From Candidatus Fervidifonticultor quintus (GTDB lineage: Bacteria > Sysuimicrobiota > Sysuimicrobiia > Sysuimicrobiales > Humicultoraceae): a DNA stretch of 36,898 nt. Numbering within the stretch: the stretch's first letter is position 1; every line of letters starts with the position of its first letter. The translations under genes were made by a program, and so were the position numbers. Positions 1,556 to 31,136 of this stretch are shown in pieces. Where the stretch lies: the NCBI GenBank assembly GCA_031459535.1, contig JAVKIJ010000024.1, positions 1-36,898 of the forward strand, in the 5' to 3' direction. A model generated the notes under the pieces. The model saw only the letters and a list, made by a program, of their open reading frames with translations. It was not told the DNA's origin and made no database searches.

Positions 1556-1562
1556 CGCCCCG

Positions 1563-2057: not shown

Positions 2058-2133
2058 GCCGCCATTCCCCTTGTTCGGAGGGCTTCGCCATAGACGGCGG
2101 AGGTGCTAGAAATGAGCGCGCGGTCCATCACAA

Positions 2134-3129
2134 TCAACAACCCCACCACGCCCGCAAGCGCCGAGCAAGCATGTCACCGTCCCAGTCCCGCACAGCAAAG
2201 CGGGGAAGCCGGTAGGCATCTGCCCCGCTCCGGACGGCGCGCGGCAGGACGGTACACGCACACACAAACCCGGCCTCCCGCGCGATGGCCACGCTGTCAC
2301 CGTCAAAGTCGTCGGTCGTACCGAACGGGTACGAAAAGGCCACGACAGGTCGGCCTAGCATGGCCTCCAGCGCTCGCTTGCTTCCAGCGACCTCAGCCCT
2401 CTGCACTGCTGGCGACAGACCGGACAACACTGGATGGGTGACAGTATGTGCGCCGACTTCAATCAGGTCGCCGTCAGCCAACCGCACGAGTTCATCGGCC
2501 GTGAGCACCCGATCGGCACCTAGCGTGGTGTCCGCCGGTACCTGGGCGCGGAGCTGGGCAAGGATCTCGCGTCGCCGTTCCGGGGAGGCGCGCCGCATAA
2601 GTCGGTCAAGTGCGGCTACCAGATGCCGACGCGCGCCGCCCGCGTCACCGTCGCCGTAGGTGGGGAGGCCAAACTCATGCACCTGCCCGTCGGTAACGAC
2701 TCGCACACGCTCGGGCAGCCGCGGTGCGCCGAACACGTGCCGCTCCAGTTCATCCCACCAGAAGCCTTCTGAGCTCCCCACAAGCCCGGACGTGACAAAG
2801 ACCGTGGCGGGCACCGCGTGCCTTTCGAGCAGCGGCTTCGCGACCCGGAGATTGTCCGCGTATCCGTCGTCGAAGGTTAGCGCCACCGCCTTGCGCGGCA
2901 CGCGGCCCTGTCGCAGTCTGGCGGCCAGCGCCCCCAACGAAATCGGATAGGCCAGGCGGCGGAGCACCTCGAGGTGCTCCAGAAACCGCGCTGAAGTCAC
3001 GGAGAGCTGATACCACGGTGAAGGTGTTTCGGCCACCCGGTGGTACAGCAAGATCAGCGCGCCAGGCGCCGTCCACGCCCGCCACGACCGGGTCAGGCGC
3101 CCTGCGGCCTCCCCCACCTTCAGGGTCAC
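2134..3129 (-). CDS. Polysaccharide deacetylase (CE4/NodB, IcaB-like with insertion)
   Basis: LLYHRV, TFDDGY, GAHTVTHP and FSYPFG motifs. GTG at 3129 overlaps the upstream stop (GTGA). Confidence 0.92.
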   Translation of the reverse strand: MTLKVGEAAGRLTRSWRAWTAPGALILLYHRVAETPSPWYQLSVTSARFLEHLEVLRRLAYPISLGALAARLRQGRVPRKAVALTFDDGYADNLRVAKPLLERHAVPATVFVTSGLVGSSEGFWWDELERHVFGAPRLPERVRVVTDGQVHEFGLPTYGDGDAGGARRHLVAALDRLMRRASPERRREILAQLRAQVPADTTLGADRVLTADELVRLADGDLIEVGAHTVTHPVLSGLSPAVQRAEVAGSKRALEAMLGRPVVAFSYPFGTTDDFDGDSVAIAREAGFVCACTVLPRAVRSGADAYRLPRFAVRDWDGDMLARRLRAWWGC

Positions 3130-13030: not shown

Positions 13031-14818
13031 TCACGCGGACTTGCGCACCAGCATATTGCCCATCACGAGCAGGTCGAGCTCACTGGCCCGAAACGTCCGC
13101 ACAGCATCGGCAGGCGTCGACACGATAGGTTCGCCCCGAAGGTTGAAGCTGGTGTTCATCAACACCGGCACGCCGGTGGCCTGCCCGAAGCGCCGGACCA
13201 GCTCGTAGTAGAGCGGATTCCACTCCCGACGGATCGTCTGCAGCCTTCCCGTGCCCATGTGGCTCACCGCAGCGATCTGGTGGCATCGCCCGGGCCACAC
13301 CGGGCTGACGACCAGCATGAATCGTGGAGGGTACTGTCCGTCGATCTTCTGCAGATCGAAGAACTTCGGAGCCTCGTCCTCGATCACCACGGGCGCGAAC
13401 GGTCGAAACAGCTCCCGGAACTTGATCTTGGAGTTGACGATCTCCTTCATCTCCGGCCGGCGCGGGTCGGCAAGGATGGACCGGTTGCCCAGTGCCCTGG
13501 GGCCCCACTCGAACCGCCCCTGCGCGAGGCCCACCACCCGGCCTGCGACCAGTGCGTCCACCACCCGGTCGGCCAGCGCATCGAGATCGTCGAATTCCTC
13601 ATACGCGAATCCCGAGCCGTCCAGTGCCGCCCGGGCCTCGTCTTCTCCGAAGCCCTGACCATAGTACGCGTGCTCCATCACAAACTGCCGAGGCCGACCG
13701 AGGAGGACGTGCCAGCAGTAGAGCGCCGCGCCCAGCGCACCACCCGCATCACCGGCGTTGGGTTGAATATAGACCCGTTCAAACGGCGTCTCCCGCAGGA
13801 TCCGGCCATTCGCGACACTATTGAGTGCCACGCCGCCGGCCATGACCAGATCCTTCAACCCGGTGGTGCGGTGGAGATGCCGCACCATGCTCAGCAGGAT
13901 CTCTTCCGTGAGCCGTTGCACGCTGGCCGCCACGTCGGCGTAGTACTGGTTCTCCCGGGCCTCTCGCTCCCTGCCACCCAGGTCACCATCGGTCCGTACG
14001 GTAAAGAACGGACTCTCGGGGCGCCGCGGCGGGCCAAACAATTCCACAAACTTGGCGCTGTAGGTGTCCGTCAGCGAACGATGAAAGCTGAAGTAGTCCA
14101 TGTTGAGTCGAAAGCTGCCGTCCTCAAACACCCGAATGATCTTCTCCAGCCTGTCCATGTAGCGTGGCTCCCCGTAGGGTGCCATGCCCATGACCTTGTA
14201 CTCCCCGCTGTTCACCTTGAACCCGAGCCACGCCGTAAAGGCCGAATACAGGAGCCCCAGCGAGTGTGGGAACCGAATCTCGTGCGACAGCAGAATGGCG
14301 TTCCGTCTGCCGTCCCCCCAATTGGCGGTCGCGCGGCCCGTCGCAGCGGTGGTCCACTCTCCCACGCCATCGACCGTCAAGACCGCAGCCTCGGCAAAGG
14401 GCGAGCAGTACATGGCGCTGGCCGCGTGGCTGACATGGTGGTCCACGAAGAGCACGGCCTCGGGACGCACCTTCAGTCGGTCTATGAGCAGTGACTTGAG
14501 CCACAGTTTCTCGTTCAACCAGGCAATCATCGCCTCCCGGAACACCTGCCAGGAGCGCGGAAATGTGCTCAGGTGGCTCAGCAGGATCCGTTCGAACTTC
14601 GGCAAGGGCTTCTCATAGAAGACGACGTAGTCGAGGTCGCCGGCCGTGATGCCGGCCTCCCGCAGGCAGTACTGGACCGCGTGCACGGGCAGGCGATGAT
14701 CGTACTTGATCCGGGTGAACCGCTCCTCCTGAGCTGCGGCCACCAGATGCCCATCGCGCAGGAGCGCCGCAGCCGAGTCGTGGTAGAACGCAGAGATGCC
14801 CAGCACATACGTCGCCAT
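13031..14818 (-). CDS. O-carbamoyltransferase (NodU/CmcH/TobZ/SxtI family)
   Basis: LGISAFYHDSAAAL, EERFTRIK, HHVSH, DGVGE, EYKVMGMAPYG, GGVALN, GPRALGNRS, RPFAP, NTSFN. Start at ATG 14818. Confidence 0.96.
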   Translation of the reverse strand: MATYVLGISAFYHDSAAALLRDGHLVAAAQEERFTRIKYDHRLPVHAVQYCLREAGITAGDLDYVVFYEKPLPKFERILLSHLSTFPRSWQVFREAMIAWLNEKLWLKSLLIDRLKVRPEAVLFVDHHVSHAASAMYCSPFAEAAVLTVDGVGEWTTAATGRATANWGDGRRNAILLSHEIRFPHSLGLLYSAFTAWLGFKVNSGEYKVMGMAPYGEPRYMDRLEKIIRVFEDGSFRLNMDYFSFHRSLTDTYSAKFVELFGPPRRPESPFFTVRTDGDLGGREREARENQYYADVAASVQRLTEEILLSMVRHLHRTTGLKDLVMAGGVALNSVANGRILRETPFERVYIQPNAGDAGGALGAALYCWHVLLGRPRQFVMEHAYYGQGFGEDEARAALDGSGFAYEEFDDLDALADRVVDALVAGRVVGLAQGRFEWGPRALGNRSILADPRRPEMKEIVNSKIKFRELFRPFAPVVIEDEAPKFFDLQKIDGQYPPRFMLVVSPVWPGRCHQIAAVSHMGTGRLQTIRREWNPLYYELVRRFGQATGVPVLMNTSFNLRGEPIVSTPADAVRTFRASELDLLVMGNMLVRKSA

Positions 14819-14831
14819 GTTCAGCTCACCC

Positions 14832-15107
14832 TCAGAACTGTCGCCTAGCGCCGACGAGGGCGTCACTGGCCGGCGCCCGCGGTGTCCACGCCGAGTCCGA
14901 CGCGCGGGGTCGAAGCAAGAGCGGGTCCTTGGCGCGTGCCACAAGGCCCAATGGGAGCCCCAGCACGACATAGACCACGGTCAGCACCAGCCGCGCCTGA
15001 AACTCGCCGACCAGGGCGATGACTCCCAACCAGCTCCGCCACCACCGTCTGATCGGGTGCCATCCCTGGACGCCATCCGCCTTCGCTAATGCCACATGCC
15101 TGTCCAT
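14832..15107 (-). CDS. SxtJ-like small membrane protein
   Basis: 91 aa, hydrophobic LVLTVVYVVLGLPLGLV, DPL..S.W..R pattern, C-terminal RQF. RBS GGGGAG. Directly upstream of the carbamoyltransferase. Confidence 0.75.
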   Translation of the reverse strand: MDRHVALAKADGVQGWHPIRRWWRSWLGVIALVGEFQARLVLTVVYVVLGLPLGLVARAKDPLLLRPRASDSAWTPRAPASDALVGARRQF

Positions 15108-15161: not shown

Positions 15162-16370
15162 CTACGCACGCAGGAACTCGTAGACTTCCGATAGGCTCCG
15201 CTGCAGAGAAAAAGCCGTCCGGGCTCGCCAGCGGCCGGCCTCGCCGAATTCAGCCCTCCTGGCCGGGGACCGAAGCAGGTCCGTCACCGCCGACGCCAGA
15301 CGCCCAGGATCCCCTGCAGGCACTAGCAGGCCGGTCTCTCCGTCGGAGACGGCCTCGGGTATACCCCCTACGGCCGAGGCCACCACCGGACGTCCTACAG
15401 CCATGGCCTCCAGAACAACCCGCGGCAGCGATTCCCACAAGGACGGAACCACTACCACGTCGCTGGCGCCCAGCAGGCGCGAGACGTCGTCGCGCGTCCC
15501 GAGAAAGCGCACGCGTTCCTGCAGCGCTCGCCGATGTGCTTCTGCTTCAATCGCCATGCGCAGGGGCCCGTCCCCGGCCAGCACCAGCACCGCCCCCGGA
15601 TACTGCCTCACGATCGCGGTCATGGCCTCCAGGAGGACTGCGTGTCCCTTCTCTGCTGTAAATCGCGCTACGCAGGCCACCACCAGGGCGTCGTCAGACA
15701 GACCGATCTCACGACGCAGCTCGGTTGTGCCGGTCACTGCAGCCGTCACCCGATCCACATCGATACCAAAGTGTACCGTCCGGGTCCGTTCGGGAGGGTA
15801 GGCATAGTGCCCCAGGCATAGTTCCCGAGTAGCGTTCGATGGCACAAGTATCCACCGTGCAATCCTCGCCGGAACTGTCCGCTTGAATCCCCTGCCGTCC
15901 CACCACCGTCTATCCGACCGCGGGCTGGCGTCGACCGCCATGGGTTGGTCCGAACCCCCGATGCCATTGAGTGGAGGGACAAAGTGCTCGTGCAGGATCA
16001 CCCTCGGCACCCTGGTCAGCCACGCGGCCGCAATGCCTGGGACCCCGTGGCCCATCGAGGGGCGGTTCACGTAGAGGACATCGGGCCGAACACGCGCCAG
16101 GTAAGCGGCGCACGCGAGGAACCGCCTGCGCCAGGAGACCTGGACCGATAGCGGGAGTCGGTCCACCGGTACGCCCGCGCTCCTCAGGCGTTCGGCCAGG
16201 GGCGTCACGGTTGCCCGGTCAGAGAGCACCGCCCGCGCACTCCACTGAGCCTGGCCGGCGTGCGCCGCAATCTGGGCGAGCACGTCCTCTGCGCCTCCGA
16301 TCCCGCTGCTATCAGTGAAGAACACGATGTGACGGCTCATCCGGTCAACCCACGGGCCCAGTCGCCGCAT
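15162..16370 (-). CDS. Glycosyltransferase family 4
   Basis: GIGGAE, VARFTAEKG, ESLPRVVLEAMA motifs. Start uncertain (16370 or 16340). Confidence 0.9.
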   Translation of the reverse strand: MRRLGPWVDRMSRHIVFFTDSSGIGGAEDVLAQIAAHAGQAQWSARAVLSDRATVTPLAERLRSAGVPVDRLPLSVQVSWRRRFLACAAYLARVRPDVLYVNRPSMGHGVPGIAAAWLTRVPRVILHEHFVPPLNGIGGSDQPMAVDASPRSDRRWWDGRGFKRTVPARIARWILVPSNATRELCLGHYAYPPERTRTVHFGIDVDRVTAAVTGTTELRREIGLSDDALVVACVARFTAEKGHAVLLEAMTAIVRQYPGAVLVLAGDGPLRMAIEAEAHRRALQERVRFLGTRDDVSRLLGASDVVVVPSLWESLPRVVLEAMAVGRPVVASAVGGIPEAVSDGETGLLVPAGDPGRLASAVTDLLRSPARRAEFGEAGRWRARTAFSLQRSLSEVYEFLRA

Positions 16371-16395: not shown

Positions 16396-16566
16396 CTAGA
16401 ACAGCGTGTAGATGAATGGGCCGAGCCCCGTGGCCGTGCCCAAGGCAATGAGCCCCGCAAACATCAACAGTACGACCAGCATGGGGACCAGCCACCACAA
16501 CTTGCGCTTCCACAGGAAGTACATCAACTCCACCAGCGTGGCCGCCACTCCCCGAAGCAACACCAT
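16396..16566 (-). CDS. DUF5989/SxtK-like membrane microprotein (56 aa)
   Basis: Not in ORF track (<60 aa). Manual translation: MVLLRGVAATLVELMYFLWKRKLWWLVPMLVVLLMFAGLIALGTATGLGPFIYTLF*. AGGAGG lies 7 nt upstream of ATG 16566 (alternative ATG 16572). Confidence 0.88.
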   Translation of the reverse strand: MVLLRGVAATLVELMYFLWKRKLWWLVPMLVVLLMFAGLIALGTATGLGPFIYTLF

Positions 16567-16603
16567 TGCCATCCCTCCTGTACCTCACACTTGGCTGCCG
16601 GAC

Positions 16604-17845
16604 TCACGGCCGCAGGAACCGCTCCTGCTGGAACCACTGAACGATACGCGCAGCCGCCAGCTCGTGGCCTCGCGCCGTCAGGTGCTCATCCTTGTCCAGG
16701 TACACTTGCTCTCCGGTCCGTCTCACGTGTTCACGGAACATGTGGGTCAGGTCGAGATATGAAATTCCTCTGCGCCTCAGGAGTGCCTCCAGTACCCGAT
16801 TGGGTTTGTTAAGATCCCAGGCAACAGTCTCGGCCTCCGGCCAGCACGCCAGCGTCTCTCGCCATGCTTCGGGCAGCACCTGACGCCGCGACGGGAAGTA
16901 CACGACTGCAAACGCCGCACCCCGTCGGGCGACTTCAGCCTGCAACCGCCCGATGATGGCGCTGGTCACCTTCCAGGCTTCCACATACTCGGGGGTAGGC
17001 TCGCTGGCGAATACAAACAGATCGACGGGCACGCCCTTTGCCGGGTAGCAAAACGGATCCTGTCGTCGCTGCCGGAGCCGCACTGCTCGCACCAGCCTGT
17101 AGGTCCTCGACGCGCGTCGCAAAAACTTCTTGACCGGCGACTGGGTTCGGCTGTCCGCCCACACCCCTTCGCCCTCATACGGGAAGTTGTGCAAGACGAG
17201 CTGGTCCCCGTCCAGGCGAAAGTATGGCTTCTCTAACTTCAGAAGCCCGTCGAAGTCCGTGCCGTTGTCATCGATATCGTTAAGATAGAACTGCAGCAAC
17301 ACCAGGTCGGGACGGTACTTGTATCCCTCGTGGGCGTAGTAGAGCAACTGCTGGTCGGTGCTCCAGCCCGGGACTCCGGCGGCGATGATCTCCGTCCGTC
17401 CGGTACCATTGGCGTCGCTCAGCGCTGCCTCCAGTCGCTCATGCCATACGTCGCTGAGAGGCACTTCGAATCCTGCGGTGACCGAATCGCCCAGAATCAG
17501 CACCCGAGCTACGCCCGGCGTCCTCTCCAAGGCATAGTCGCGCTCCCGGAACCCCACTGCGTTGATCTGTACCCGAGTTCCGAAATTGACAAACGCCGTG
17601 CGATGCGCGAACTCTGCGCCGGGCAACAGCGACCACCCCGTGATGCGATCCGGGACCTTCATGTAAGGTGGCCTTCTCCGGAGCTGCTCTACCGGCGCGA
17701 CCCCGGTCGCCAAGAGCCCGACCTCCACCACAAGCAGAGCCAGCACGAGGCCAAATGCCACGAGCAGCAACACACCCCCCACTCGACGGACCACCGGCAT
17801 CCCTCCCAGCCTGGTCCGCCAACCCGGCTGCGGCTCACCGCGCAA
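16604..17845 (-). CDS. Membrane-anchored SGNH/GDSL-family protein (AlgJ/AlgX-like, SxtL-like)
   Basis: N-terminal TM segment; blocks LGDSV, GVPGWST, YLND and DEHLTARGH. Start uncertain (17845 or 17800). Confidence 0.88.
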   Translation of the reverse strand: MRGEPQPGWRTRLGGMPVVRRVGGVLLLVAFGLVLALLVVEVGLLATGVAPVEQLRRRPPYMKVPDRITGWSLLPGAEFAHRTAFVNFGTRVQINAVGFRERDYALERTPGVARVLILGDSVTAGFEVPLSDVWHERLEAALSDANGTGRTEIIAAGVPGWSTDQQLLYYAHEGYKYRPDLVLLQFYLNDIDDNGTDFDGLLKLEKPYFRLDGDQLVLHNFPYEGEGVWADSRTQSPVKKFLRRASRTYRLVRAVRLRQRRQDPFCYPAKGVPVDLFVFASEPTPEYVEAWKVTSAIIGRLQAEVARRGAAFAVVYFPSRRQVLPEAWRETLACWPEAETVAWDLNKPNRVLEALLRRRGISYLDLTHMFREHVRRTGEQVYLDKDEHLTARGHELAAARIVQWFQQERFLRP

Positions 17846-17853
17846 CCGGTCCG

Positions 17854-19497
17854 TCAGCAGGGGAACTCCCCGCGTCTGAACGCCTCCACGATGCCGGCGG
17901 CGGTACGCATCGCGAGCGCCATGATCGTCAGCGCGGGGTTGACCCCGCCGCCGGTTACGAACACACTGCCGTCAGCGATGAACAGATTGGGCACATCGTG
18001 CGTCCGGCACCACGGGTCTACCACGGAGGTCCTGGCGTCCACGCCCATCCGGCACGTCCCCAGATAGTGCGTGGATCCGCCCGGCGTGTACTCGGCGTCC
18101 CAGATCTCCGTCGCCCCGGTGGCCCTGAGGATTTCCTCCAGCACGCGAGACATGGCGGCCAGCATGGCTCGGTCGTTCTCGCGCGGTTCGTTGACGATGT
18201 GCGGAACGGGCAGACCGAGGTGATCCCGCACGGTAGGGTCCAGGGCCACATAGTTTCGGGCGTCAGGCAACTGCTCGCCGACCGTGGCCAGACCGATCAG
18301 GTGCCCGAAGAGTTCCTGGACCCGTGCCTTGTGGGCGGCTCCCCAGCCCGGCACGGACCGAGCCACCGCCACGGGCCACTGGCGGTTGTTGTCCAGCACG
18401 ACGGTCCACCCGCGCGCAAACCCGTTCCGGCCATCGGTCTCGTAGAAGTCCTGCATCATCCCGTTGATCACGGGTCCGTGCCAGGCATCAACACGCTGGC
18501 CGATGACCCCCCATCGGAAGACCGATAGGTGCTCGGTGAAGTACTTGCCGACCAACCCGCTGGAGTTGGCGAGTCCTTGGGGGAATCGGCTCGACCGGCT
18601 CAGCAGGAGTAGGCGCGGGGTCTCCACCGCGTTTGCCGCAAGTACGATGGCCCTGCCAGCGACCTGTCGCTCCTGCCCCTGCCCATCGACGTACACTACA
18701 CTGCGTGCCCGTCCCATCCGGTCCACAGTCACCTGTACAGCTTGGCATTGCGGCCGGATCTCGACGCGCCCGGTGGCCTCGGCCTTCCGTACGAAAGTCA
18801 CATCGACGCTCGACTTGGCCATGATCTTACAACCGATCAAGCACGCGCCGGCGTTGGTGCAGGCTGGCCGGCCCTCCCAGGTTCTCGTGGGAATCGCCAG
18901 AGGAACCGGCACCATGTGCAGGCCCAAACGTCGAGCAGCTTGCTTGACAAGTCGTCCGGCCTCGTTGAACTCGTGGGGTGGGGTTGGGTAGGGTAGGCTT
19001 CTCGGGGGGTCGAAGGGATTGGCCATCGCTCCCCTGGGCCCGGCGACCCCCAGCTCGTATTCCACGGCCGTGTAGTACGGCTCCAGGTCGTCGTAGGTGA
19101 TGGGCCAGTCATCGGCCACGCCATCACGGGTGCGCGTGGCGAAGTCGCTCTCGTGCAGCCTCAGGGCCACGGCACCGTACGCCAGGGTTGATCCGCCCAC
19201 GCCCCTCACTCGCACGTATTCGAACCCCATTGCGCCTCCGTTGGTATAACGGTCGCGACGCGGGTCTGGCGACTCGAATGCCCCGGGACTCGTCTCGAAG
19301 TCGACCCGATCCCCAGCGTAGTCAGCCGCCGCGTCGAAACGTCTCCCCGCCTCCACCACCAGTACCGACAGCCCCGCTTCCCCCAGTTCCTTGGCTACGA
19401 CACCTCCGCCGGCGCCGCACCCGACTACGACCACGTCGACCTGCTCAACGTGCCTGCGCATCACGTGAGGGAACGTGCGAAGGAAAGTCTGCCACAT
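17854..19497 (-). CDS. GMC-family FAD oxidoreductase
   Basis: VVVGCGAGGG, GVGGST, DWPITY, CxxxxxCxxGC, ETPRLLLLS, HYLGTCRMG, NPALTIMALA. Alternative start 19461. Confidence 0.94.
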   Translation of the reverse strand: MWQTFLRTFPHVMRRHVEQVDVVVVGCGAGGGVVAKELGEAGLSVLVVEAGRRFDAAADYAGDRVDFETSPGAFESPDPRRDRYTNGGAMGFEYVRVRGVGGSTLAYGAVALRLHESDFATRTRDGVADDWPITYDDLEPYYTAVEYELGVAGPRGAMANPFDPPRSLPYPTPPHEFNEAGRLVKQAARRLGLHMVPVPLAIPTRTWEGRPACTNAGACLIGCKIMAKSSVDVTFVRKAEATGRVEIRPQCQAVQVTVDRMGRARSVVYVDGQGQERQVAGRAIVLAANAVETPRLLLLSRSSRFPQGLANSSGLVGKYFTEHLSVFRWGVIGQRVDAWHGPVINGMMQDFYETDGRNGFARGWTVVLDNNRQWPVAVARSVPGWGAAHKARVQELFGHLIGLATVGEQLPDARNYVALDPTVRDHLGLPVPHIVNEPRENDRAMLAAMSRVLEEILRATGATEIWDAEYTPGGSTHYLGTCRMGVDARTSVVDPWCRTHDVPNLFIADGSVFVTGGGVNPALTIMALAMRTAAGIVEAFRRGEFPC

Positions 19498-19524
19498 TGC
19501 GAGGGTACCTGCTCCATCCGGCGT

Positions 19525-20187
19525 CTAACTGTCAGCCCCTGTGGGGCTCAAGCCGGCACGAGGGTCGCGCGGGCTCTCTCCGCTCATCCCGCCAAAGGGC
19601 GGTCCGTCATAACCAAGCCATTCCCACGCCACGCGACTGGAGTAGAACGCGTCCAAGACGTCGCGGACGAGCCACGGAACCAAGCGAACGGCTGCTTCTT
19701 CGCCGCGAAGGCCACGCCTGAACCGATCAATCCCGCGCATCAGCCGCCCAGCCACAGACCGGCCACGCGCTCGCCGGGCCTGGCGGACCTGCTGGACGTA
19801 CTGGAGCAGTTCTTCGAGTTGCTCAGAGGACAGTCCGGCCGCACCCGTCCCATACCGGTACCGGGCCAGTCGGTCCAGCGCCGGCAAGCCCCGCTCATAC
19901 ACATGCTGGCGCACGGCCGAGCGACTCACCCGTCGATCTATCTGTTCCAGTACGGCGGCTTCAAGCGCACCGGGCCCGCCCGCGCTGGTCGGAACGATTA
20001 CGGCCGCGAACGCCAGCAACACCGCGGCCTGAGCCGCTCCAAACCACCGTAGACCGCTGGCCGGGACTGTAAACACCAGCCCCTTGGCCCACCCCTCATC
20101 GCGGCGCCCGCCGCTGCGCCACCGTCCAATCCCCAGCACGGCCGCCATCACCGCACGAGCACCCCTCAGCGCCATGTCGTCTCTCAT
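19525..20187 (-). CDS. Gluconate 2-dehydrogenase subunit-3-like partner of the GMC enzyme
   Basis: IVP...PGA and C-terminal AFYSS..AWEWLGYDGP, directly upstream of the GMC gene. ATGA overlap. Confidence 0.7.
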   Translation of the reverse strand: MRDDMALRGARAVMAAVLGIGRWRSGGRRDEGWAKGLVFTVPASGLRWFGAAQAAVLLAFAAVIVPTSAGGPGALEAAVLEQIDRRVSRSAVRQHVYERGLPALDRLARYRYGTGAAGLSSEQLEELLQYVQQVRQARRARGRSVAGRLMRGIDRFRRGLRGEEAAVRLVPWLVRDVLDAFYSSRVAWEWLGYDGPPFGGMSGESPRDPRAGLSPTGADS

Positions 20188-21485
20188 CGCAGGACTTGAC
20201 GCTCCACGGGCGCGAACGTCGCGTCCTGCTCAGCGCGCAGGCGGTCGGCCAAGCGTCCATCTGGCAGTTCCACGTCCGCAAGGGCGATGGGCTCGTCGCG
20301 TCTTACGGCGCGCACGAGCCGGCACCCTGCCGCCAGTCCCACCGGCAGGAGGCGATCCCGACGGCACGCTTCGGCGTTCTCGATGACGCCGTAGTACGCG
20401 AAGCCCCCGATGCCGTCCAGGGTCGTCCCGGCGGCCAAGTCACGCTTGGCGAGCGCAACCACCTCGCAGACCGGACCCTTCAGGGGCGCGATGGTCGCGT
20501 CGCCGAACAGCACTGCCCGGGCTACGGTGAACGGGACTTCCAGGTGCGGCAGATGATACGGTGTATAGAACACATACACCGGACCGTCGCCCATCTTGAA
20601 GTACCGCATGTACTCCTGCTTGATCGGATCGTCGTTGTAGCCGAGCACGAAAACTCCAGGCCCGGGCTCCGCCCCCAGGACATAATCGACCAACCCGCCC
20701 GCCAGCAGCTCGTCGAGGCGAAAGAGCCGCGGCGCCTCCGTCACATGGGCGCACCGCGGACCGTACATGCCCCGCCGGCCTACCCGGAATCCGGTGGCAT
20801 TGGCCACGACCGCCATCTCCAGCGCCAGCTTCGTACCGTCCGCGAACGCCGTGACCATCTGCGCCCGCTGGCGGTGCGCCTCGGCAAATGCCCGCTGTGT
20901 CTCAGGAGTCCGGTGGGGATCGATCATGCCCTTGATGTTACCGGCCAGTACGGGCCGGTAGCCCATGGCCTTCACGTACCGGTAGAGGTTCATGATCACG
21001 CCGGGCTGGTCACCATCGGCGTTGGTAATTACCACACCTGTGCGGTCGGCATAAACCTTCAGGATGGGACCGAGGGTGGCATCCAGTTCAGCATTCATCA
21101 AGATGACATGCTTGCGCCGTTGAAGGGCACCCACCACCACGCGTGTGGCGAATTCGACCTCCCCTGTCGCCTCAATCAGGGCGTCGATCCCCTTCGCCTC
21201 GGCCAGGAGGTGGGGATCGCGGGTGACGGCATACTGGCCGCTGGCGATGGCCCGTTCCAACGCTCCAGGGTCGTCCACATGCTTAATGCGTTCTACGCCG
21301 GCTTGCCGGTACGCCCGCTCGGCTTCCGAGACCGTGCGGTTCGCAATAGCCACCAGGCGCAGCCCCGGCACAGCGCTCACGATCTGCAGGGCAATGCCCC
21401 GGCCCATGTATCCCGCGCCGACCAGCGCCACACGAATGGGCTGCCCTTCTCGGTATCTCTGCTCCAGTGCCGTATCAACCAGCAT
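20184..21485 (-). CDS. NAD(P)-dependent oxidoreductase with C-terminal SAF domain (homoserine dehydrogenase-like)
   Basis: VGAGYMG, MNAELD, GDQPG, FADGTK, PYHL and AKRDL..LDGIGG motifs. ATG 21485 overlaps the upstream 3' end. Confidence 0.88.
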   Translation of the reverse strand: MLVDTALEQRYREGQPIRVALVGAGYMGRGIALQIVSAVPGLRLVAIANRTVSEAERAYRQAGVERIKHVDDPGALERAIASGQYAVTRDPHLLAEAKGIDALIEATGEVEFATRVVVGALQRRKHVILMNAELDATLGPILKVYADRTGVVITNADGDQPGVIMNLYRYVKAMGYRPVLAGNIKGMIDPHRTPETQRAFAEAHRQRAQMVTAFADGTKLALEMAVVANATGFRVGRRGMYGPRCAHVTEAPRLFRLDELLAGGLVDYVLGAEPGPGVFVLGYNDDPIKQEYMRYFKMGDGPVYVFYTPYHLPHLEVPFTVARAVLFGDATIAPLKGPVCEVVALAKRDLAAGTTLDGIGGFAYYGVIENAEACRRDRLLPVGLAAGCRLVRAVRRDEPIALADVELPDGRLADRLRAEQDATFAPVERQVLR

Positions 21486-22863
21486 GCTCAGCAGCGGCGC
21501 CCGTGAGGCCGCCGGCCGTGCCATCCACGCTCCAGCCAATCCCCTCGTAGCGACGAAACTGGCTCTTCTCGAACATCCGCCGCCCGTCAACCACCACCGG
21601 ACCAGGTGGCGGTAGGTCCGCTACCAGTTGCGGCAGTCGGTTGAACTCCTCCCACGCCGTGAGCACGACAATGGCCTCGCAGTCCTTGATGGCTTCGGCG
21701 AGGCTGCTGCCGCGCTTGGCGCCCTGGTCCCGCCACTCCTTCCCGGCTGGCTCGGCTACGGGATCGTAGACCCTCACCACAGCCCCACACTGCTGCAGGA
21801 GCCGGATCACCGGAAGAGCCGGAGAGTCGCGCACGTCATCGGTACCGGGTTTGAACGCCAGCCCGAGCACGCTCACCTGCACGCCTCGCAACGAAGGGAA
21901 ATGCCGGCTCAACATGCGCAAGATCTGCCGCGGACGATCTTCGTTGATCGCCAGCACGGCCTCGAGTAGCCGCGTGTGAACCCCCGCTGCGCGGCCGTGG
22001 GCCATGAGCGCCTTGAGGTCCTTGGGAAGACAACTGCCCCCGAATCCACAGCCGGCCTCGAGATACGCGGTGACGGCAGGAACGATCCGCCGTCCGTCGA
22101 CCTTCGGGCTGAATCGCCGGTCCAGATGCACGGCCCGCATGACGTCCCGCACGTCGATCCCGCCCAGCGCCGCGCACATGTCGGCCACTTCATTCGAAAA
22201 CGAGATCAAGGTCGCCAGCAAGGCGTTGGACACATACTTGATCATTTCGGCCGTCCGATTAGTCGTTCGGACGACCTGTACCTCACCAAACGACCGGTAC
22301 ACAGCGTCCAGTGTCTCCAGCGTCCTGGCGTCGAGCCCGCCAATCACGATGCGATCGGGCTCCATAAAATCCTGCACCGCATGGCCCTGTCGCAGAAACT
22401 CGGGATTCACGCCCACGCCAAAGCCGGCTCCCGCTCGTCTTCCGGAAGCCTTCTCCAGTGCTGGTAGCACAACCCCGTCGGTTGTTCCCGGCACCACCGT
22501 ACTCTTGACTACCACCACATGATAGGAGCGCGCACCCTTCAAGGCGTCGCCGATCTGCTCCGCAGCCGCTCGGACCTGGGACAGATCGATCCGTTGCCCA
22601 TCGAACGGTGTCCCCACCGCGATGATGGAGACGTCTGCCGCCTCCACGGCGCGCCGAGGATCGTCCGTCGCCAGGAGGCGCTCTCCCACATGCTTGCACA
22701 GCAACCCGTCGAGCCCCGGCTCAAAGAACGGCGCCCGCCCCGCGTTGATCTGCCTCACGCGGTCGGCATCCACGTCGACGCACCACACGGCGTGTCCTTT
22801 GTCGGCCAGACACGCCCCTGTCACCAACCCCACGTAGCCCGCGCCGACGATGGCGATCTTCAC
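21475..22863 (-). CDS. UDP-glucose/GDP-mannose dehydrogenase family (Ugd-like)
   Basis: GAGYVG, VGTP, KSTVVPGT, NPEFLR, GFGGSCLPKD, FKPGTDDVR. Confidence 0.93.
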   Translation of the reverse strand: MKIAIVGAGYVGLVTGACLADKGHAVWCVDVDADRVRQINAGRAPFFEPGLDGLLCKHVGERLLATDDPRRAVEAADVSIIAVGTPFDGQRIDLSQVRAAAEQIGDALKGARSYHVVVVKSTVVPGTTDGVVLPALEKASGRRAGAGFGVGVNPEFLRQGHAVQDFMEPDRIVIGGLDARTLETLDAVYRSFGEVQVVRTTNRTAEMIKYVSNALLATLISFSNEVADMCAALGGIDVRDVMRAVHLDRRFSPKVDGRRIVPAVTAYLEAGCGFGGSCLPKDLKALMAHGRAAGVHTRLLEAVLAINEDRPRQILRMLSRHFPSLRGVQVSVLGLAFKPGTDDVRDSPALPVIRLLQQCGAVVRVYDPVAEPAGKEWRDQGAKRGSSLAEAIKDCEAIVVLTAWEEFNRLPQLVADLPPPGPVVVDGRRMFEKSQFRRYEGIGWSVDGTAGGLTGAAAEHAG

Positions 22864-22923: not shown

Positions 22924-24042
22924 TCACGGCCTGACGGGCTCCGCCGCCCGCTGTTCGCTGAACCAGACCAGCGTTCGCTTCAAGCCTTCGTCTAGCGGTA
23001 TCGCCGGTTGGTAGTCGAGCTCCCGCCGGGCTTTCTCGATCGAAGGGCATCGCCGGCGGGGGCTGTCCGTAAGATAGCCTGGATCGTCACTGGCCGTGCA
23101 GACGACCTTTCCACGGTATCCGTAGAGGTCCCTGGCCAGCGCCACGATGCGCTCACCCAGTTCGCGTACGCTGATCTCCGGCGCGCTCACACCGATGTTG
23201 TATGGCTGTGCCGTGCGTCCGCGGACCAGCACCTTGTAGTATCCCACAATCGCATCTGCCACGTAGCAGAACGTGCGCGTGGGGGACCCATCGGAGCGCA
23301 GGATGACATTTTCTCTCCTCAGGACGTTGCGGGTCAGATCGGCCACGACCCGGCCGTCAGTCAACTTCATCCCCGGCCCATAGTTATTGAAGGGTCGAAC
23401 GATCTTGACGGGCAGGCCGTACGCGTTTGCAAACGCCACACACACAGTCTCGCCATACCGCTTTGCCTCGTCGTAACATGCCCGGGGACCCGTGCACGAT
23501 ACGTTCCCGCGGTACTCCTCGGGCGTAGGAATGTGTGCCGGATCCGGGTCACCGTAAACCTCACTACTGGAGAAGAACAGGAACCCCCGGACCGGCACCC
23601 CCCTCGCCGTCTGGCCGCGCGCGCGATCCAGCATCCGCCGCAGCCCGTCCACGTTGGCGTCCATGGTCTCGATGGGATATCGGCGATAGTAGACGGGTGA
23701 CGCGATGGACGCTGCGTGCGCCACGTACTCGAAGTCACCTACCTCAGTGGGCAGCGGAATAGTCACATCGTGACGCACAACCCGTAGGGCGGAGTCACCG
23801 ACAAGCTCGCCGAGCCAGGCAGGCGTGCCCAGAATGAAGCTGTCGGCGATCGTCACGCGAATCGGCGGCGCAGACTGATTCAGCCGGTTCCAGTGCAACA
23901 CAGCCTGTACCAGATAGTACCCGAGGAACCCGCCACCACCGCTCACCAGCACACGTGTGCCCGCCATCTCTGCCAGTTCGTCGCTGGCATTCTGGCAGAT
24001 GTACTCCAAGTCCGCGATCACCACGTCGGCGGCGCCCTTCAC
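22924..24042 (-). CDS. NDP-glucuronate decarboxylase (UXS)-like SDR
   Basis: GGGGFLG, ASIASP, SSSEVYGDP, GNVSCTGPRACYDEAKR, TRTFCYV. Confidence 0.88.
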   Translation of the reverse strand: MKGAADVVIADLEYICQNASDELAEMAGTRVLVSGGGGFLGYYLVQAVLHWNRLNQSAPPIRVTIADSFILGTPAWLGELVGDSALRVVRHDVTIPLPTEVGDFEYVAHAASIASPVYYRRYPIETMDANVDGLRRMLDRARGQTARGVPVRGFLFFSSSEVYGDPDPAHIPTPEEYRGNVSCTGPRACYDEAKRYGETVCVAFANAYGLPVKIVRPFNNYGPGMKLTDGRVVADLTRNVLRRENVILRSDGSPTRTFCYVADAIVGYYKVLVRGRTAQPYNIGVSAPEISVRELGERIVALARDLYGYRGKVVCTASDDPGYLTDSPRRRCPSIEKARRELDYQPAIPLDEGLKRTLVWFSEQRAAEPVRP

Positions 24043-25067
24043 GGCGAGGCCTCCACGGGGCGGCGAAACTTTACCAGGAGTGTCCGCAGGGCTTTACGGA
24101 TCCGCAACACGGCGAACAGTGCCCGGCGCAACGGTGAGATCCGCGTGAAGCCCGCGCGGTTTAGGGCGCTGAGCGCCACGCGAACAGCAGCTCCCCTCAC
24201 CCCCCTACGCAACCAGACCGGCACCTCGGACGGCTCTAACCGCAAGGGCAGATCGGGCGCCGTCAGGCAGCGTACCAGCAGACGCGCGTAGGCATCACGG
24301 CGGTCGACGTGCGTCCACCCCCGCGACTCCCAGACCTTGGAGCTCCCAGCCGCGTGCAGCATTACGGGCGTCGCGCCCTCGTGCACGCAACGGAGCCGGT
24401 GCTCATCGAGCACACAAACCCTCCGCAGTTCCTGCCAGATCGGCACGGCCGGCCGCTCGAGCATCAGCACAGCTCCGGCGGAAACCTCGCTCATCAGCAG
24501 CGCGTTCAGCGCGTCCTGGTCGCCGTAGTAGATGGGGTTGTCCTCCGGGCTGCCCGCCGCGACTCTCTTGTCCGTGGCGATCCGGCAGCATAGCTCCCAC
24601 CAGCGCCGCAACAGGTGCGGCCAGTGAGCCGTCGACAGCACCACGAAACCGGCGCCCACGTACGGCTGGCGCCGCAGCCGCCGGGTCAGCCCAAAGATCT
24701 CCTGCCATTCCCCAAACCACCGGTCGCCGCTGGGGTCTATGTAGCTGACAATCATGCCGCCAGCCGCACGTTCCAGTATTGGGGCCAGCGAGTCCGTCAC
24801 GACGATGTCGCTGTCAATAACCGCCACCGTCCCGTCCCCGCCCAAGACATGCGGGTACGCTTTCAGCATCACCGGAGGCGTCGGCCCCGCGGCGCTCGGA
24901 AGATCGACCACAGTGCCCCGCGTGCTCAACAGTCGTCGCTGGCGAGGGCTCAGCCCGCGATCCAGCACCGACAGGTTGTTGCCATGGCCTGTCAGCCACA
25001 ATGAGTTCAACAGAGCCACGGTCCCCAGGAAGTACGAGGCGGTGCTGATCGTGAAGAACCTCACCAC
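24039..25067 (-). CDS. GT8-like glycosyltransferase (GT-A)
   Basis: IDSD (DXD), DQDALN and HAAGSSKVW (resembling HxxGxxKPW). Probable GTG start at 25067 or 25064. Confidence 0.7.
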   Translation of the reverse strand: MVRFFTISTASYFLGTVALLNSLWLTGHGNNLSVLDRGLSPRQRRLLSTRGTVVDLPSAAGPTPPVMLKAYPHVLGGDGTVAVIDSDIVVTDSLAPILERAAGGMIVSYIDPSGDRWFGEWQEIFGLTRRLRRQPYVGAGFVVLSTAHWPHLLRRWWELCCRIATDKRVAAGSPEDNPIYYGDQDALNALLMSEVSAGAVLMLERPAVPIWQELRRVCVLDEHRLRCVHEGATPVMLHAAGSSKVWESRGWTHVDRRDAYARLLVRCLTAPDLPLRLEPSEVPVWLRRGVRGAAVRVALSALNRAGFTRISPLRRALFAVLRIRKALRTLLVKFRRPVEASP

Positions 25068-25113
25068 GTGGGACCACCCGACCCTTGATCGTCGCACGCC
25101 AGCGGCGGTACCC

Positions 25114-26088
25114 TCACTGCTGGGCCTCTGCGATGCGCGTGGCCAGGCGTCCCGTGACTGCCCGCCACAGCAGCCAGGGGTAGGACGCCGGGTTCGAATG
25201 GGCCCGCAATGCCAGCGCCAGATAAGCGATTGCCTCACGCGGGCGCCCCCGCCGCACTGCCTTGAGGCTCTCCCGAATGCCCCGCTCGGAGAACGCCATC
25301 ATAACTTGGCGACGAAGGCACTCGCACTGCGGAATACGCTCACGATGTTCGTCGAACACAAACCTCGTCGCCAGGTAGTGCTGCTCCAGATCACACGGGC
25401 CCCGAAACCTGGTAGTGATCATTCCTGCGTGGATCCGGTACTTCACCAGCGGCTGCCCGATGCACGCCGTGTCGTAGTAGAGCAACATCCGCATCAGCAT
25501 CTCGCCGTCACACGTGAACGGTATCCCCTCCCGGTACCCGCCCAGGCGCTCGTAGCACACCCGCCGTGCCAGCACCGCTCCGATGAAAACGATGCTTCCC
25601 ACGTTCACCATGGCCATGGCGTACCTGCGAAACACATCGATGCCTCGGGCGTGGTAGTCGCGGCGCGAGTCCAGCGCCCAGTGCTCAGCCAGCACACGTC
25701 CACGGTCGTCGATCTGAAGAATATTGGAATGAACGAACCCCAGGCTCGTGTCACCGTCCAGGAGCCGTACCTTCCGTTGGAGATTCTGCGGCAGCATCAC
25801 ATCATCGTGGGCCCAGATGCACACATATTCGCCCCTGGCCAGGGCCAGGCATCGGTTGAAGTTACCGACGAGTCCTACGTTGGTTGGATTGCGGAAGTAC
25901 CTGAGGCGGTCATCCTTGAGGCTGGCAGTAATCTCCGGGGTCTCGTCGGTAGAGCAGTTGTCGGACACCACCAGTTCGAAGTCGCCATATGTCTGGGCCA
26001 GCACGGACTCCAGCGACTCTCGCAGATATCTGGCCCCGTTGTAGACCGGCACACACACGCTGACCCGTGGAGACCCGACGGGCCTCAT
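25114..26088 (-). CDS. Glycosyltransferase family 2
   Basis: VSVCVPVYN, SDNCSTD, NFN, HDD motifs. ATGA overlap at 26085-26088. Confidence 0.92.
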   Translation of the reverse strand: MRPVGSPRVSVCVPVYNGARYLRESLESVLAQTYGDFELVVSDNCSTDETPEITASLKDDRLRYFRNPTNVGLVGNFNRCLALARGEYVCIWAHDDVMLPQNLQRKVRLLDGDTSLGFVHSNILQIDDRGRVLAEHWALDSRRDYHARGIDVFRRYAMAMVNVGSIVFIGAVLARRVCYERLGGYREGIPFTCDGEMLMRMLLYYDTACIGQPLVKYRIHAGMITTRFRGPCDLEQHYLATRFVFDEHRERIPQCECLRRQVMMAFSERGIRESLKAVRRGRPREAIAYLALALRAHSNPASYPWLLWRAVTGRLATRIAEAQQ

Positions 26089-28680: not shown

Positions 28681-29770
28681 CGACCGACACGGTCGCCCGT
28701 TCGCTCTCCAGCCAGGGGAATTCCAGGGGCTGACGCGCGCGGTAGCAGGCCTCGATCCACTTCACCGCCCGCAACCCGTCAGCTGCCGAAACCGGAGCTG
28801 GACCGCCTGTGGCAACGGCCCGCGCGAAGGCGCGCAACTGGTCGGCGAAGACGTCCTCCCACGACTGCAGCGGCGCCACCGACCGGTCGGGTACCAGCAC
28901 CATCCGCCCGCGTACGTCACTGGTCGGCCACAGTCGTACCTCACCCCGCCGGTGGTTGAGCCCGTACTCCATGGAGAATCGCTCCCCAATAATGCGTACG
29001 CTGTTCCACAACCCACGAAGGCGACTCAACACCGCGTGCCCCGCTATCAGGCCGTCAGCACCACGCAACACCAGGGAGATCTCACACTCGGCCTCCACGC
29101 CGCCCCGGGCGTCGTCCCAGTACTCTAGCGCCAGCGGCTCGCCCATCCACCAGCACAACAGGTCGAGCACGTGCGGGCCGGCATCGATCAGCACGCCCCC
29201 GCCCGCTTGTTCCCGATCCCAGATGAACCCTGAGGCCACCGGCCAGTCGAACACACTCCCCCACTCCACAGAGATGCGCCGTATCGGCCCCAGCCAGCCT
29301 TCCTCGAGCCATTGCTTGATCATTCGTGCGCCGCGGCAGAAACGGTAGACGTGGCCGATCTGGAGCAACACGCCTGTTCGCTCCGCGAGTACCACGATGG
29401 CCCGTGCGTCTTCCACAGTTGCCGCCAGCGGCTTCTCCAATAGGACCGGGATGCCGCGTCGGAGACATTCACCGGCCACGGCGCGGTGGTAGCGATTAGG
29501 AACGGCGACGATCGCACCATCCAGTCCGTCGGGGAGCTGCCCAACATCCGCGGCGCAGTGGCCGACGCCGAACCGCCGGGCGAGGCCTTGCGCGCGCTCA
29601 AGGCTGGTATCGACAAGTGACACAACCTCGATCTGGCGGACCTGCTTCGCCGCCGGAAGGTGACACCACTCCGCAACGGCGCCACAACCAACGACCGCCA
29701 TGCGCAAGCGCCGAACCCGTCCTCCCATGTCGCCTGGGGCCGGCGGCTGCGTGGCCGGTTCAGTGCTCAT
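28673..29770 (-). CDS. Gfo/Idh/MocA oxidoreductase, copy 1
   Basis: AVVGCG, VLLEKPLA, GGGVLIDAGPH (DxxxH). Confidence 0.92.
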   Translation of the reverse strand: MSTEPATQPPAPGDMGGRVRRLRMAVVGCGAVAEWCHLPAAKQVRQIEVVSLVDTSLERAQGLARRFGVGHCAADVGQLPDGLDGAIVAVPNRYHRAVAGECLRRGIPVLLEKPLAATVEDARAIVVLAERTGVLLQIGHVYRFCRGARMIKQWLEEGWLGPIRRISVEWGSVFDWPVASGFIWDREQAGGGVLIDAGPHVLDLLCWWMGEPLALEYWDDARGGVEAECEISLVLRGADGLIAGHAVLSRLRGLWNSVRIIGERFSMEYGLNHRRGEVRLWPTSDVRGRMVLVPDRSVAPLQSWEDVFADQLRAFARAVATGGPAPVSAADGLRAVKWIEACYRARQPLEFPWLESERATVSVDG

Positions 29771-31101
29771 CGGTCATGGGTCCGCACTGCGGACCACCTG
29801 CCAGACGCCGACGCGTGGCCACCCAGGTATGCAATCAACATGAACACGAACGGATACACCTGCACACGCTGCCTGGCCACGATGCCGAAGTTGGCCATGT
29901 TCGCAAAGAAGAACACGAACAAGAGCCCGTAGACCAGCACCATCACCAGATAGCTGTCCCGGCGCACCGCCAGGAGTGCCGCCTTGACACTGCGCCAGCG
30001 CAGCAGCACCAGGGCCAGCAGGCCCAGGCCTTCCAGGGCCGTCATCGAGGCGAACACCGTGTGCGCCTCCCAGGGGAAGGGCCGGAAGAGCACCGTGAGG
30101 GTGCCCAGGACGAATCCCACCGGGGTCCTCGGGTTGATGCGCGCAAATGCCGAGCCCCCCTGCTCTGTTTGTCCCCCGGCCCACTCGACGAACTCGAGCA
30201 CACCTTCCGTGGTCAGGCTCTCGAGCCTGATGAATCCAGCTGCCGTGCTGATCAAGCTTAGCGCCACGGGCACCAGCACCGCCAGACCTGCCAGGCGGAT
30301 CACCGGGCTCAGCACGCCGGCGCGGATCGGCCGAACGAGCATGGATGCGACCAGCGCCACGACGAACACCCCCACGATGTGCGGGCGCACCATGAGCATG
30401 CCCGCCACACCCAGCGCCAGCCACCACAAGCCAGGCACGTCGAGCCGCCGGTGGAGCCGTGCCGCGCCGTACGCGCCCATCCCCAGGGCCAGCACCATGA
30501 GCGCATCCTTCCCCAGGCTGCTGGTCCACAGCAGCATGGACGGATAGAGCAGAATCAGGGCCATGTAGAGGCGGCGGTTGCCGTCAGGAAACGCGACGGT
30601 GAAGGCCTTGTAGAAGCCCAGCATCCCCAGCAGCCCAAACCAGGCCCACAAGATCGTGGCTCCGTAGAGCGTGGGGCCCGTGATGAGATAGACCATCCCG
30701 GTCACGAGGCGCACGAAGCCCGTGCTCCAGTAGCGGTCCATGACCGGCCACTCACCGGCCGCCAGGGTCCTCGCGATGTCCTCCCCGAACTTGTCGTAGA
30801 CAAACGCGTCCGCCAGCAGACCCATGCGGAATCGCGAGTATGCCGCCACCAGCTTGAAGACGAAGCTGAGGATGAGGACGACCAGGAGCAGGGATCCCTC
30901 GGGATCGGACCGGGCCGCCGCCCAGAAGATGAGTAGCGACACCACGAGCAGCGTGCTCAGGACCACGGCGGCCCGCACCGTGGCCATGTCCTTGACGGAC
31001 ATCAGCGTGCCGATCCCCCAGGCCAGGGCCAGCGTGAGCCCCAGGACGGCCACGGCCCGCATGCGGTTCGCCTGCACGGGGCCGCTCGCCAGTGTGCTCA
31101 T
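29767..31101 (-). CDS. Polytopic membrane protein, Wzy/O-antigen-ligase/GT-C-like
   Basis: About 10-12 hydrophobic segments; DAFVYD, PSMLLWTSSLGKD, RPH, RPFPWE, NFGIVARQR. GGAGG RBS before ATG 31101. Confidence 0.7.
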   Translation of the reverse strand: MSTLASGPVQANRMRAVAVLGLTLALAWGIGTLMSVKDMATVRAAVVLSTLLVVSLLIFWAAARSDPEGSLLLVVLILSFVFKLVAAYSRFRMGLLADAFVYDKFGEDIARTLAAGEWPVMDRYWSTGFVRLVTGMVYLITGPTLYGATILWAWFGLLGMLGFYKAFTVAFPDGNRRLYMALILLYPSMLLWTSSLGKDALMVLALGMGAYGAARLHRRLDVPGLWWLALGVAGMLMVRPHIVGVFVVALVASMLVRPIRAGVLSPVIRLAGLAVLVPVALSLISTAAGFIRLESLTTEGVLEFVEWAGGQTEQGGSAFARINPRTPVGFVLGTLTVLFRPFPWEAHTVFASMTALEGLGLLALVLLRWRSVKAALLAVRRDSYLVMVLVYGLLFVFFFANMANFGIVARQRVQVYPFVFMLIAYLGGHASASGRWSAVRTHDR

Positions 31102-31136
31102 GCTGTCACCACCTCCGGCGTGACCAATGTGCAACC

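Follow-up and report, generated by a model that had tools for sequence, protein, structure and literature searches.

The window analysed here, a stretch of 36,898 nucleotides from Candidatus Fervidifonticultor quintus (assembly GCA_031459535.1, contig JAVKIJ010000024.1), encodes a 56-residue membrane microprotein of the DUF5989/SxtK family that ends in the hexapeptide FIYTLF. The microprotein belongs to a conserved module composed of a NodU/CmcH-type O-carbamoyltransferase (CarbT), an SxtJ-like protein, DUF5989 itself and, often, a membrane-anchored SGNH enzyme. We tentatively propose, with confidence a little short of even, that DUF5989 is a DltX-like tyrosine carrier, one of four parts of a membrane relay through which an exported polysaccharide becomes O-carbamoylated. 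This is the simplest account because an invariant tyrosine stands at a fixed distance from a free C-terminus that is predicted to face outward, because its motif is identical to that of a proven acyl-tyrosine carrier, and because the gene is linked to those of an activating enzyme and of an intact, membrane-anchored SGNH protein resembling AlgJ and PatB1.

An earlier note on this DNA had pointed to an unlisted 56-amino-acid (aa) open reading frame (ORF) with a well-spaced AGGAGG, a KRK patch, one hydrophobic helix and a free PFIYTLF C-terminus, had placed FIYTLF at 16399-16416, and had described the gene as directly following that of the SGNH enzyme. Reading of the sequence confirmed each of these points. 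The gene starts at ATG 16566-16564 and stops at TAG 16398-16396, and the stop codon of the upstream SGNH gene (16604-16606) lies 37 nt before its ATG. The product, MVLLRGVAATLVELMYFLWKRKLWWLVPMLVVLLMFAGLIALGTATGLGPFIYTLF, is built from an amphipathic and basic N-terminal part containing the patch WKRKLWW, one transmembrane helix, and a 12-residue tail that closes with GPFIYTLF; the codon of Tyr53 is TAC at 16410-16408. An alternative in-frame ATG at 16572, two codons upstream, would give a 58-aa form. The 56-aa form has the length of the closest relatives in a search of 5.8 billion proteins, where PF19451 was present in all 27 candidates.

Against the Pfam model DUF5989 (PF19451) the microprotein scored 57.9 bits (E 1e-15; gathering cut-off 27), and residues 12-58 aligned with profile positions 3-49 of 49, that is, to the profile end. 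It is the only DUF5989 gene of the genome. An exhaustive search of 1.84 billion representatives returned 1311 DUF5989 homologues at E <= 0.001, each representing a cluster at 50% identity. Because of the Pfam match, the homologues and the conserved gene neighbours, we conclude that the ORF is a real gene. In one RNA library, from the study that includes the likely source, contigs span 15864-16315 (in the GT4 glycosyltransferase gene) and 17414-17830 (the start of the SGNH gene) at a depth of 2.5-3.3, and may stem from DNA carry-over; no contig of that library lies over the microprotein ORF, and such contigs are unable to show absence. Searches of PDB sequences with the microprotein or its profile gave chance-level matches only, the ESM Atlas gave no usable match, and NCBIfam contains no model that matches the microprotein or the SxtJ-like ORF.

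In a search for fused forms of DUF5989 at longer lengths, none of 155 candidates gained a score, which is weak evidence. Fifteen apparently long DUF5989 frames in related loci proved to be upstream ORF extensions matching neither CarbT nor SxtJ. In one metagenome fragment (protein P0094, 131 aa), the end of a Carbam_trans_C domain is joined to DUF5989 in a single frame, either as a natural fusion or through a sequencing frameshift. Sorting signals of the PEP-CTERM or LPXTG type have the order motif, helix, basic tail. The order in the microprotein is basic patch, helix, motif, and a C-terminal sorting signal was ruled out.

The tail is the most conserved part of DUF5989 and is always found at the very C-terminus. 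Counts were made on the best 150 of the 1311 representatives, ranked on the whole protein with the tail included. Tyr occupied position -4 in 145 of them, preceded by Pro at -7 (140), Phe at -6 (132) and Ile (113) or Val (24) at -5, and followed by Thr at -3 (111), Leu at -2 (124) and Phe at -1 (128). Inspected by eye, four of the five members without Tyr at -4 keep a tyrosine in a changed, extended or one-residue-shorter end, and one stops at PFI. When 75 short members were hand-picked from the 150 to build alignment A1, only two columns were invariant, that of the Tyr and that of a Pro where the helix begins (P30); the consensus FLWxRKxWWLxP and W27 (>= 90%) were also conserved.

A second sample came from 101 alphaproteobacterial genomes, 17 of them positive, from which all over-threshold Pfam matches with a locus were taken (one further match of 28 bits had no locus and was left out). 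Each of the 18 DUF5989 ORFs had Tyr at -4 as well as Phe at -1, and this holds even for two divergent paralogues that scored 42 and 35.6 bits. A motif-blind search with residues 1-46 returned only the two forms from the window itself, and therefore yielded no family sample independent of the tail. One alphaproteobacterial genome carries two divergent DUF5989 paralogues in tandem (L138, 574-777 and 1447-1650, plus strand; L153), both ending in SPFLYAVF and followed by an SGNH gene; our hidden Markov model (HMM) found no CarbT in 19.5 kb.

The acyl-shuttle motif of DltX and PatA-type proteins is as the earlier note described it. In DltX, the invariant Tyr of a C-terminal FXYXXF at the extracellular end carries D-alanine to the serine of the SGNH protein DltD, and MBOATs of the PatA type have the same motif (FIYANF) at their own C-terminus (PMC12148441). 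FIYTLF fits this pattern, which extends to the phylum of the window: 10 of 11 MBOAT genes retrieved from it end in [YF][LI]Y[FM]QF, as PYLYFQF or QFIYMQF. Wherever the ending is PYLYFQF (L094-L099, L104), the next gene contains a DDIHW block; these look like ordinary MBOAT-SGNH pairs in sister families without DUF5989.

DUF5989 is similar to DltX, which works in D-alanylation with the MBOAT DltB and the SGNH protein DltD, in its size of about 50 residues, in its single helix and in being a separate protein. Both have an F-x-Y-x-x-F hexapeptide at a free C-terminus, extracellular in DltX and predicted outside for DUF5989, and the DUF5989 gene also adjoins that of a membrane-anchored SGNH partner. 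Unlike DltX, DUF5989 falls outside the DltX Pfam model, lives in a genome in which no MBOAT was found, and has an additional SxtJ-like partner. Moreover, its activating neighbour is a carbamoyltransferase, and the carried group would be carbamoyl rather than D-alanyl. Pfam named no DltA or DltC among the large ORFs of the window, where no search was aimed at them. With PatA/AlgI-type MBOATs the microprotein shares the motif and the preceding Pro or small-residue linker after the last transmembrane helix (the phylum MBOATs end in RPAPYLYFQF or LAQFIYMQF), and the SGNH profile matches their partners AlgJ, AlgX and PatB1. In those systems, however, the motif is inside the MBOAT and is loaded through its own tunnel from acyl-CoA, whereas DUF5989 is a separate 56-aa protein and no MBOAT was found in the carrier genomes of its phylum. 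In OatA, an AT3-SGNH peptidoglycan O-acetyltransferase, an outer-face tyrosine likewise accepts the group from a membrane domain and passes it on to the SGNH serine, but that tyrosine is part of a large AT3 membrane domain fused to SGNH and the donor is acetyl-CoA (PMC12148441). The likeness of DUF5989 to the tyrosine shuttles is one of design, with or without common descent.

The gene neighbourhood of DUF5989 is conserved well beyond this genome. Around the microprotein the order is GMC oxidoreductase, SGNH, DUF5989, GT4 glycosyltransferase, 91-aa ORF, carbamoyltransferase and AsnB-like amidotransferase; an SxtI-SxtJ-SxtK-type module is therefore present, with the CarbT and SxtJ-like genes one GT4 gene away from the microprotein. 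The earlier note had covered this module only in part, without the 91-aa ORF, which had been masked by an over-long call of the CarbT ORF, whose true start is ATG 14818 and not 14971 (start sequence MATYVLGISAFYHDSAA). It was recognized with an HMM built from 141-aa neighbours of DUF5989 in other genomes, one of them a Pfam SxtJ member, and matched model positions 56-129 of 129, the conserved C-terminal half, at E 8.8e-11. It had no match to Pfam SxtJ (PF19588) at E <= 10, and this model found nothing genome-wide at E <= 1. The same short SxtJ-like form lies between DUF5989 and CarbT in relatives within the phylum. The carbamoyltransferase also matched NCBIfam NodU (1.8e-40), below the model cut-off.

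To place these genes in a wider frame, 80 loci from many phyla were picked with the pattern [AGS]x[AG]PFIYTLF, used for gene context and never for motif conservation, and scanned with HMMs built in this analysis. Within 3 kb, CarbT was found in 69, SxtJ in 62 and SGNH in 47 of the 80. For the 45 loci flanked on either side by 5 kb or more, the figures within 5 kb were 43, 42 and 29, respectively: all three partners in 28 loci, CarbT and SxtJ in 14, CarbT and SGNH in one, and none in two. Among nine loci of the window's own phylum, CarbT and SxtJ stood beside DUF5989 in eight and SGNH in six; two of the three lacking SGNH are on short contigs. SxtJ, DUF5989 and CarbT were contiguous in 14 of 17 alphaproteobacterial loci. 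Loci without CarbT were few and heterogeneous. In two alphaproteobacterial ones DUF5989 directly adjoins SGNH, and our HMM found no CarbT in 12.7 and 19.5 kb. In another (L022) a gene of the amino-acid-kinase family, a family that includes carbamate kinase, comes right after an SGNH-DUF5989 pair (1413-2387, plus strand), with no CarbT within 7 kb downstream. In some loci (L038, L088, L057, L059, L024) a single DUF5989 gene is accompanied by two or three SGNH paralogues, all membrane-anchored.

The SGNH enzyme encoded next to the microprotein carries a conserved Glu in its N-terminal transmembrane helix, the serine of a GDS motif and a block V of the form D-x-H, and matches Pfam Lipase_GDSL_2 (1.8e-14) and ALGX (9.1e-9; 35.8 bits, cut-off 26.5). 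In alignment A3, with 26 homologues, G83, G104, S106 (of GDS) and H373 are invariant, and the anchor-helix Glu, N80, D105, G142, N174 and D175 are conserved in >= 90%. Judged by these active-site residues (GDS Ser, His, and the Gly and Asn blocks), the enzyme is catalytically intact. Its AlphaFold2 model has a pLDDT of 88.2, with a helix at 2-32. The C-terminal half of its profile matches AlgJ (9.4e-11), AlgX (2e-6) and PatB1 (4.5e-5), beside generic esterases. By far its best structural match is CgnD (8a2n), with VIA Z 22.6 and a root-mean-square deviation of 3.3 over 240 residues, the next entry having Z 16.8; Foldseek (E 5.2e-10) and a sequence profile (E 2.8e-6) also found CgnD. The conserved Glu, E26 (about 17723-17725, minus strand), is inside the membrane anchor and is usually followed by x-G/A-x-R. 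Its conservation is unusual for a plain anchor and may reflect an intramembrane contact.

The earlier note had also argued from the positive-inside rule that FIYTLF and the SGNH domain are on the same outer face, and charge bias supports this as a prediction. DUF5989 sequences average 2.84 Lys+Arg over the 15 residues that precede the helix, compared to 0.04 in the 12-13-residue tail, and the N side is the richer one in 145 of 146. Because of this bias, the N-terminus of DUF5989 is predicted to be cytoplasmic and its tail to be outside. SGNH homologues begin with a basic stretch and a single helix, this anchor is richer in Lys+Arg on its N side in 20 of 29 of them, and their catalytic domain is likewise predicted outside. 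Complex prediction for SGNH and DUF5989 gave an ipSAE of 0.02 in both runs which, made without controls, speaks neither way.

From these features we infer the following route, including its chemical steps, its topology and its acceptor. Cytoplasmic CarbT would activate carbamoyl phosphate with ATP, which is established chemistry of the NodU/CmcH/TobZ family. It would act at the membrane, where its partners would be the SxtJ-like protein and the N-terminal part of DUF5989, which is basic and amphipathic. The carbamoyl would be placed on Tyr53 of the FIYTLF tail, resulting in an aryl carbamate, a good carbamoyl donor for serine enzymes. On the outer face, the tail would present the carbamoyl to Ser106 of the membrane-anchored SGNH, which would pass it to a sugar hydroxyl of the polymer from the surrounding Wzm/Wzt-type cluster. 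SxtJ, with one to three helices, and DUF5989, with one, perhaps as oligomers, would have to form the path to the outer Tyr.

Several observations weigh against this route. The suggestion in the earlier note that DUF5989/SxtK may be a covalent carrier is partly supported, by the motif, the conserved tail, the charge bias and the frequent SGNH neighbour, but not by three other results. First, the microprotein had no match to Pfam DltX (PF12459) at E <= 10, either by hmmscan or in a six-frame search of the genome. An hhalign comparison of A1 with ten MBOAT C-termini, placing Tyr on Tyr over 24 columns, is only suggestive (probability 43.8%, E 2.4e-4), and the likeness of the DUF5989 and DltX motifs may be convergent. 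Second, MBOAT (PF03062) had no match in this genome, which is 88.85% complete, and the other 12 DUF5989 genomes of the phylum likewise gave none, as did two of five further DUF5989 carriers. Of 94 genomes of the phylum, 13 have DUF5989 and 10 have MBOAT, and none has both (12 and 10 of 93 when the unpublished genome G024 is left aside). Third, SGNH is missing within 5 kb in 16 of the 45 well-flanked loci.

The weak point of a carrier is its loading. CarbT is cytoplasmic, and there is neither an MBOAT or AT3 domain nor a known transmembrane conduit; CarbT needs ATP and has no signal peptide, and the membrane therefore separates it from the Tyr in its predicted position. In Wzm/Wzt ABC-transporter pathways the glycan is finished in the cytoplasm, and direct carbamoylation there would therefore be simpler. 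In addition, CgnD, the closest solved structure to the SGNH enzyme, is a slow peptide hydrolase and not a transferase. Saxitoxin clusters carbamoylate a small molecule, and the role proposed for SxtL is removal of carbamoyl groups rather than their addition (PMC2679770).

There is one main rival, which we regard as less likely. DUF5989 and SxtJ could be non-catalytic membrane subunits that tether or regulate CarbT, with direct cytoplasmic carbamoylation of a lipid-linked glycan or a small molecule; the tail would be a docking or assembly element, and SGNH a trimming esterase or decarbamoylase. No transfer across the membrane would be needed, in keeping with the lack of MBOAT and with a glycan completed inside the cell. 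The tightest linkage is indeed that of SxtJ, DUF5989 and CarbT, as the contiguity and co-occurrence counts above indicate, while SGNH is optional (29/45). In published accounts SxtI, SxtJ and SxtK likewise figure as a single unit for carbamoylation, with SxtL seen as a decarbamoylase (PMC2679770, PMC12300590). However, non-catalytic subunits leave unexplained why, on the face predicted to be the outer one, an invariant Tyr always stands equally far from a free C-terminus, and why its motif is identical to a proven acyl-tyrosine motif. The loci in which DUF5989 stands beside SGNH with no CarbT found nearby would also remain without a reason, as would the resemblance of the SGNH block to the transferase-type AlgJ, AlgX and PatB1.

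The pronounced structural similarity of the SGNH enzyme to CgnD raises another, quite improbable, reading in which the microprotein is a substrate: its Tyr tail would be modified, e.g., carbamoylated, and clipped by the CgnD-like SGNH to give a small modified peptide or a matured membrane peptide. In the crocagin pathway of Chondromyces crocatus, a 21-aa precursor that ends in Ile-Tyr-Trp is slowly cut by CgnD directly ahead of these three residues, and the cluster includes the carbamoyltransferase CgnI (PMC10070186). The two systems thus share a CgnD-type enzyme, a short peptide with Tyr near its free C-terminus and a carbamoyltransferase. The precursor CgnA, however, is a soluble Lys-rich 21-mer that is consumed, whereas DUF5989 has a transmembrane helix and is conserved also through its N-terminal part and helix (A1), which fits a protein working as a whole. 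CgnD is soluble, hydrolyses a peptide bond and has a DxxH triad (PMC10070186), in contrast to the DxH of the window's SGNH family. DUF5989 is also a membrane protein of many phyla, mostly in polysaccharide or plain SxtJ-CarbT contexts. The crocagin system also has a dioxygenase and the binding proteins CgnB and CgnE; Pfam revealed no dioxygenase among the large ORFs of the window. Finally, the notion of a chance frame, which the shortness of the ORF and the abundance of spurious ORFs in high-GC DNA (135 of >= 40 aa in 14 kb) might suggest, deserves practically no credence, being already refuted by the conservation data (the Pfam match, the 1311 homologues and the place beside the same partner genes in many phyla) and facing a proper ribosome-binding site.

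We provisionally take SxtK to be a DUF5989 member on the basis of its label in the earlier note, its gene size and the gene order. In published tables of saxitoxin clusters four genes stand in a row: sxtI, assigned to carbamoylation; sxtJ and sxtK, of 405 and 165 bp and listed as unknown; and sxtL, of 1281 bp and GDSL-lipase-like, proposed to encode a decarbamoylase (PMC2679770); the gene set and sizes are the same as in the module described here. Genes sxtJ, K and L also cluster in the suomilide gene cluster (PMC10157211). Pfam SxtJ also matches a DUF5989 neighbour in related loci. There are also differences: the saxitoxin cluster makes a small alkaloid whereas the window contains a polysaccharide cluster, and the SxtJ-like protein of the window is a short form outside Pfam SxtJ. 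A 2025 review, in its passages on these genes, speaks only of an 'SxtI/SxtJ/SxtK complex' and gives no role for SxtJ or SxtK (PMC12300590).

Extending the carrier to the family as a whole is a bolder step, which we hold slightly more loosely. DUF5989/SxtK, SxtJ, NodU-type CarbT and CgnD/AlgJ-like SGNH could constitute a widespread MBOAT-free relay operating via O-carbamoyl-tyrosine across or along the membrane. SxtK/DUF5989 and SxtJ have been without an assigned role since the saxitoxin clusters were described, and the family is large and spread over many phyla. The openly searchable literature contained no mention of DUF5989 and no paper with the idea of a tyrosine carbamoyl carrier. Passages of papers naming both SxtJ and SxtK gave no mechanism, the papers listed for the acyl shuttle and DltX showed nothing on carbamoyl, and a search joining carbamoyltransferase, SGNH and polysaccharide returned only titles and abstracts on unrelated matters.

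If correct, the carrier would give DUF5989/SxtK genes a precise function that can be tested cheaply. As a tyrosine shuttle it would be without precedent, both in moving a non-acyl group and in being loaded by a soluble enzyme that depends on ATP, extending the acyl-tyrosine relay of the Dlt, Pat, Alg and OatA systems to carbamoyl and to systems without MBOAT or AT3. The roles assumed for SxtJ, SxtK and SxtL would change, SxtL becoming the last transferase rather than a decarbamoylase, and the poor in vitro peptidase activity of CgnD may find an explanation. It would also reveal an unrecognised route by which cell-surface polysaccharides are decorated outside the cytoplasm.

Table 1. Features of the DUF5989 module and its surroundings in the window.
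Feature	Position	Strand	Basis
DUF5989/SxtK-family microprotein gene, 56 codons + stop	16396..16566	-	Translation; Pfam PF19451 E 1e-15; homologues
AGGAGG ribosome-binding site, 7 nt 5' of ATG 16566	16574..16579	-	Sequence reading
FIYTLF C-terminal hexapeptide; Tyr53 is the candidate carrier residue	16399..16416	-	Sequence reading and family conservation
Membrane-anchored SGNH enzyme, 398 aa from ATG 17800 (TTG 17845 also possible)	16604..17800	-	Pfam, alignment, AlphaFold2 model
GT4 glycosyltransferase between microprotein and SxtJ-like genes; start ATG 16370 or 16340	15162..16370	-	Pfam Glycos_transf_1 3.7e-42
SxtJ-like ORF, 91 aa, short form ending RRQF, directly upstream of carbamoyltransferase	14832..15107	-	HMM built in this analysis, E 8.8e-11
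NodU/CmcH-type O-carbamoyltransferase (CarbT), 595 aa from ATG 14818	13031..14818	-	Pfam Carbam_trans_N 7.5e-81, Carbam_trans_C 4.3e-62

All large genes of the window are on the minus strand and form a polysaccharide cluster, with a Wzm/Wzt-type ABC transporter, many GT4 and GT2 glycosyltransferases, two UDP-glucose dehydrogenases, rhamnose-pathway genes, a deacetylase and methyltransferases. Two further minus-strand ORFs had no Pfam match. The one at 24039-25238 is a soluble frame of 399 aa; the other, at 29767-31617, has many hydrophobic helices in its C-terminal part of about 440 aa, as in a membrane protein of the cluster, and ahead of them a probably non-coding stretch rich in Arg and Pro. 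Immediately upstream of the SGNH gene (17854-21590, minus strand) are genes for a GMC oxidoreductase, a gluconate-2-dehydrogenase-subunit-3-like protein and a DRL-type oxidoreductase, a trio that suggests sugar oxidation as a further tailoring step.

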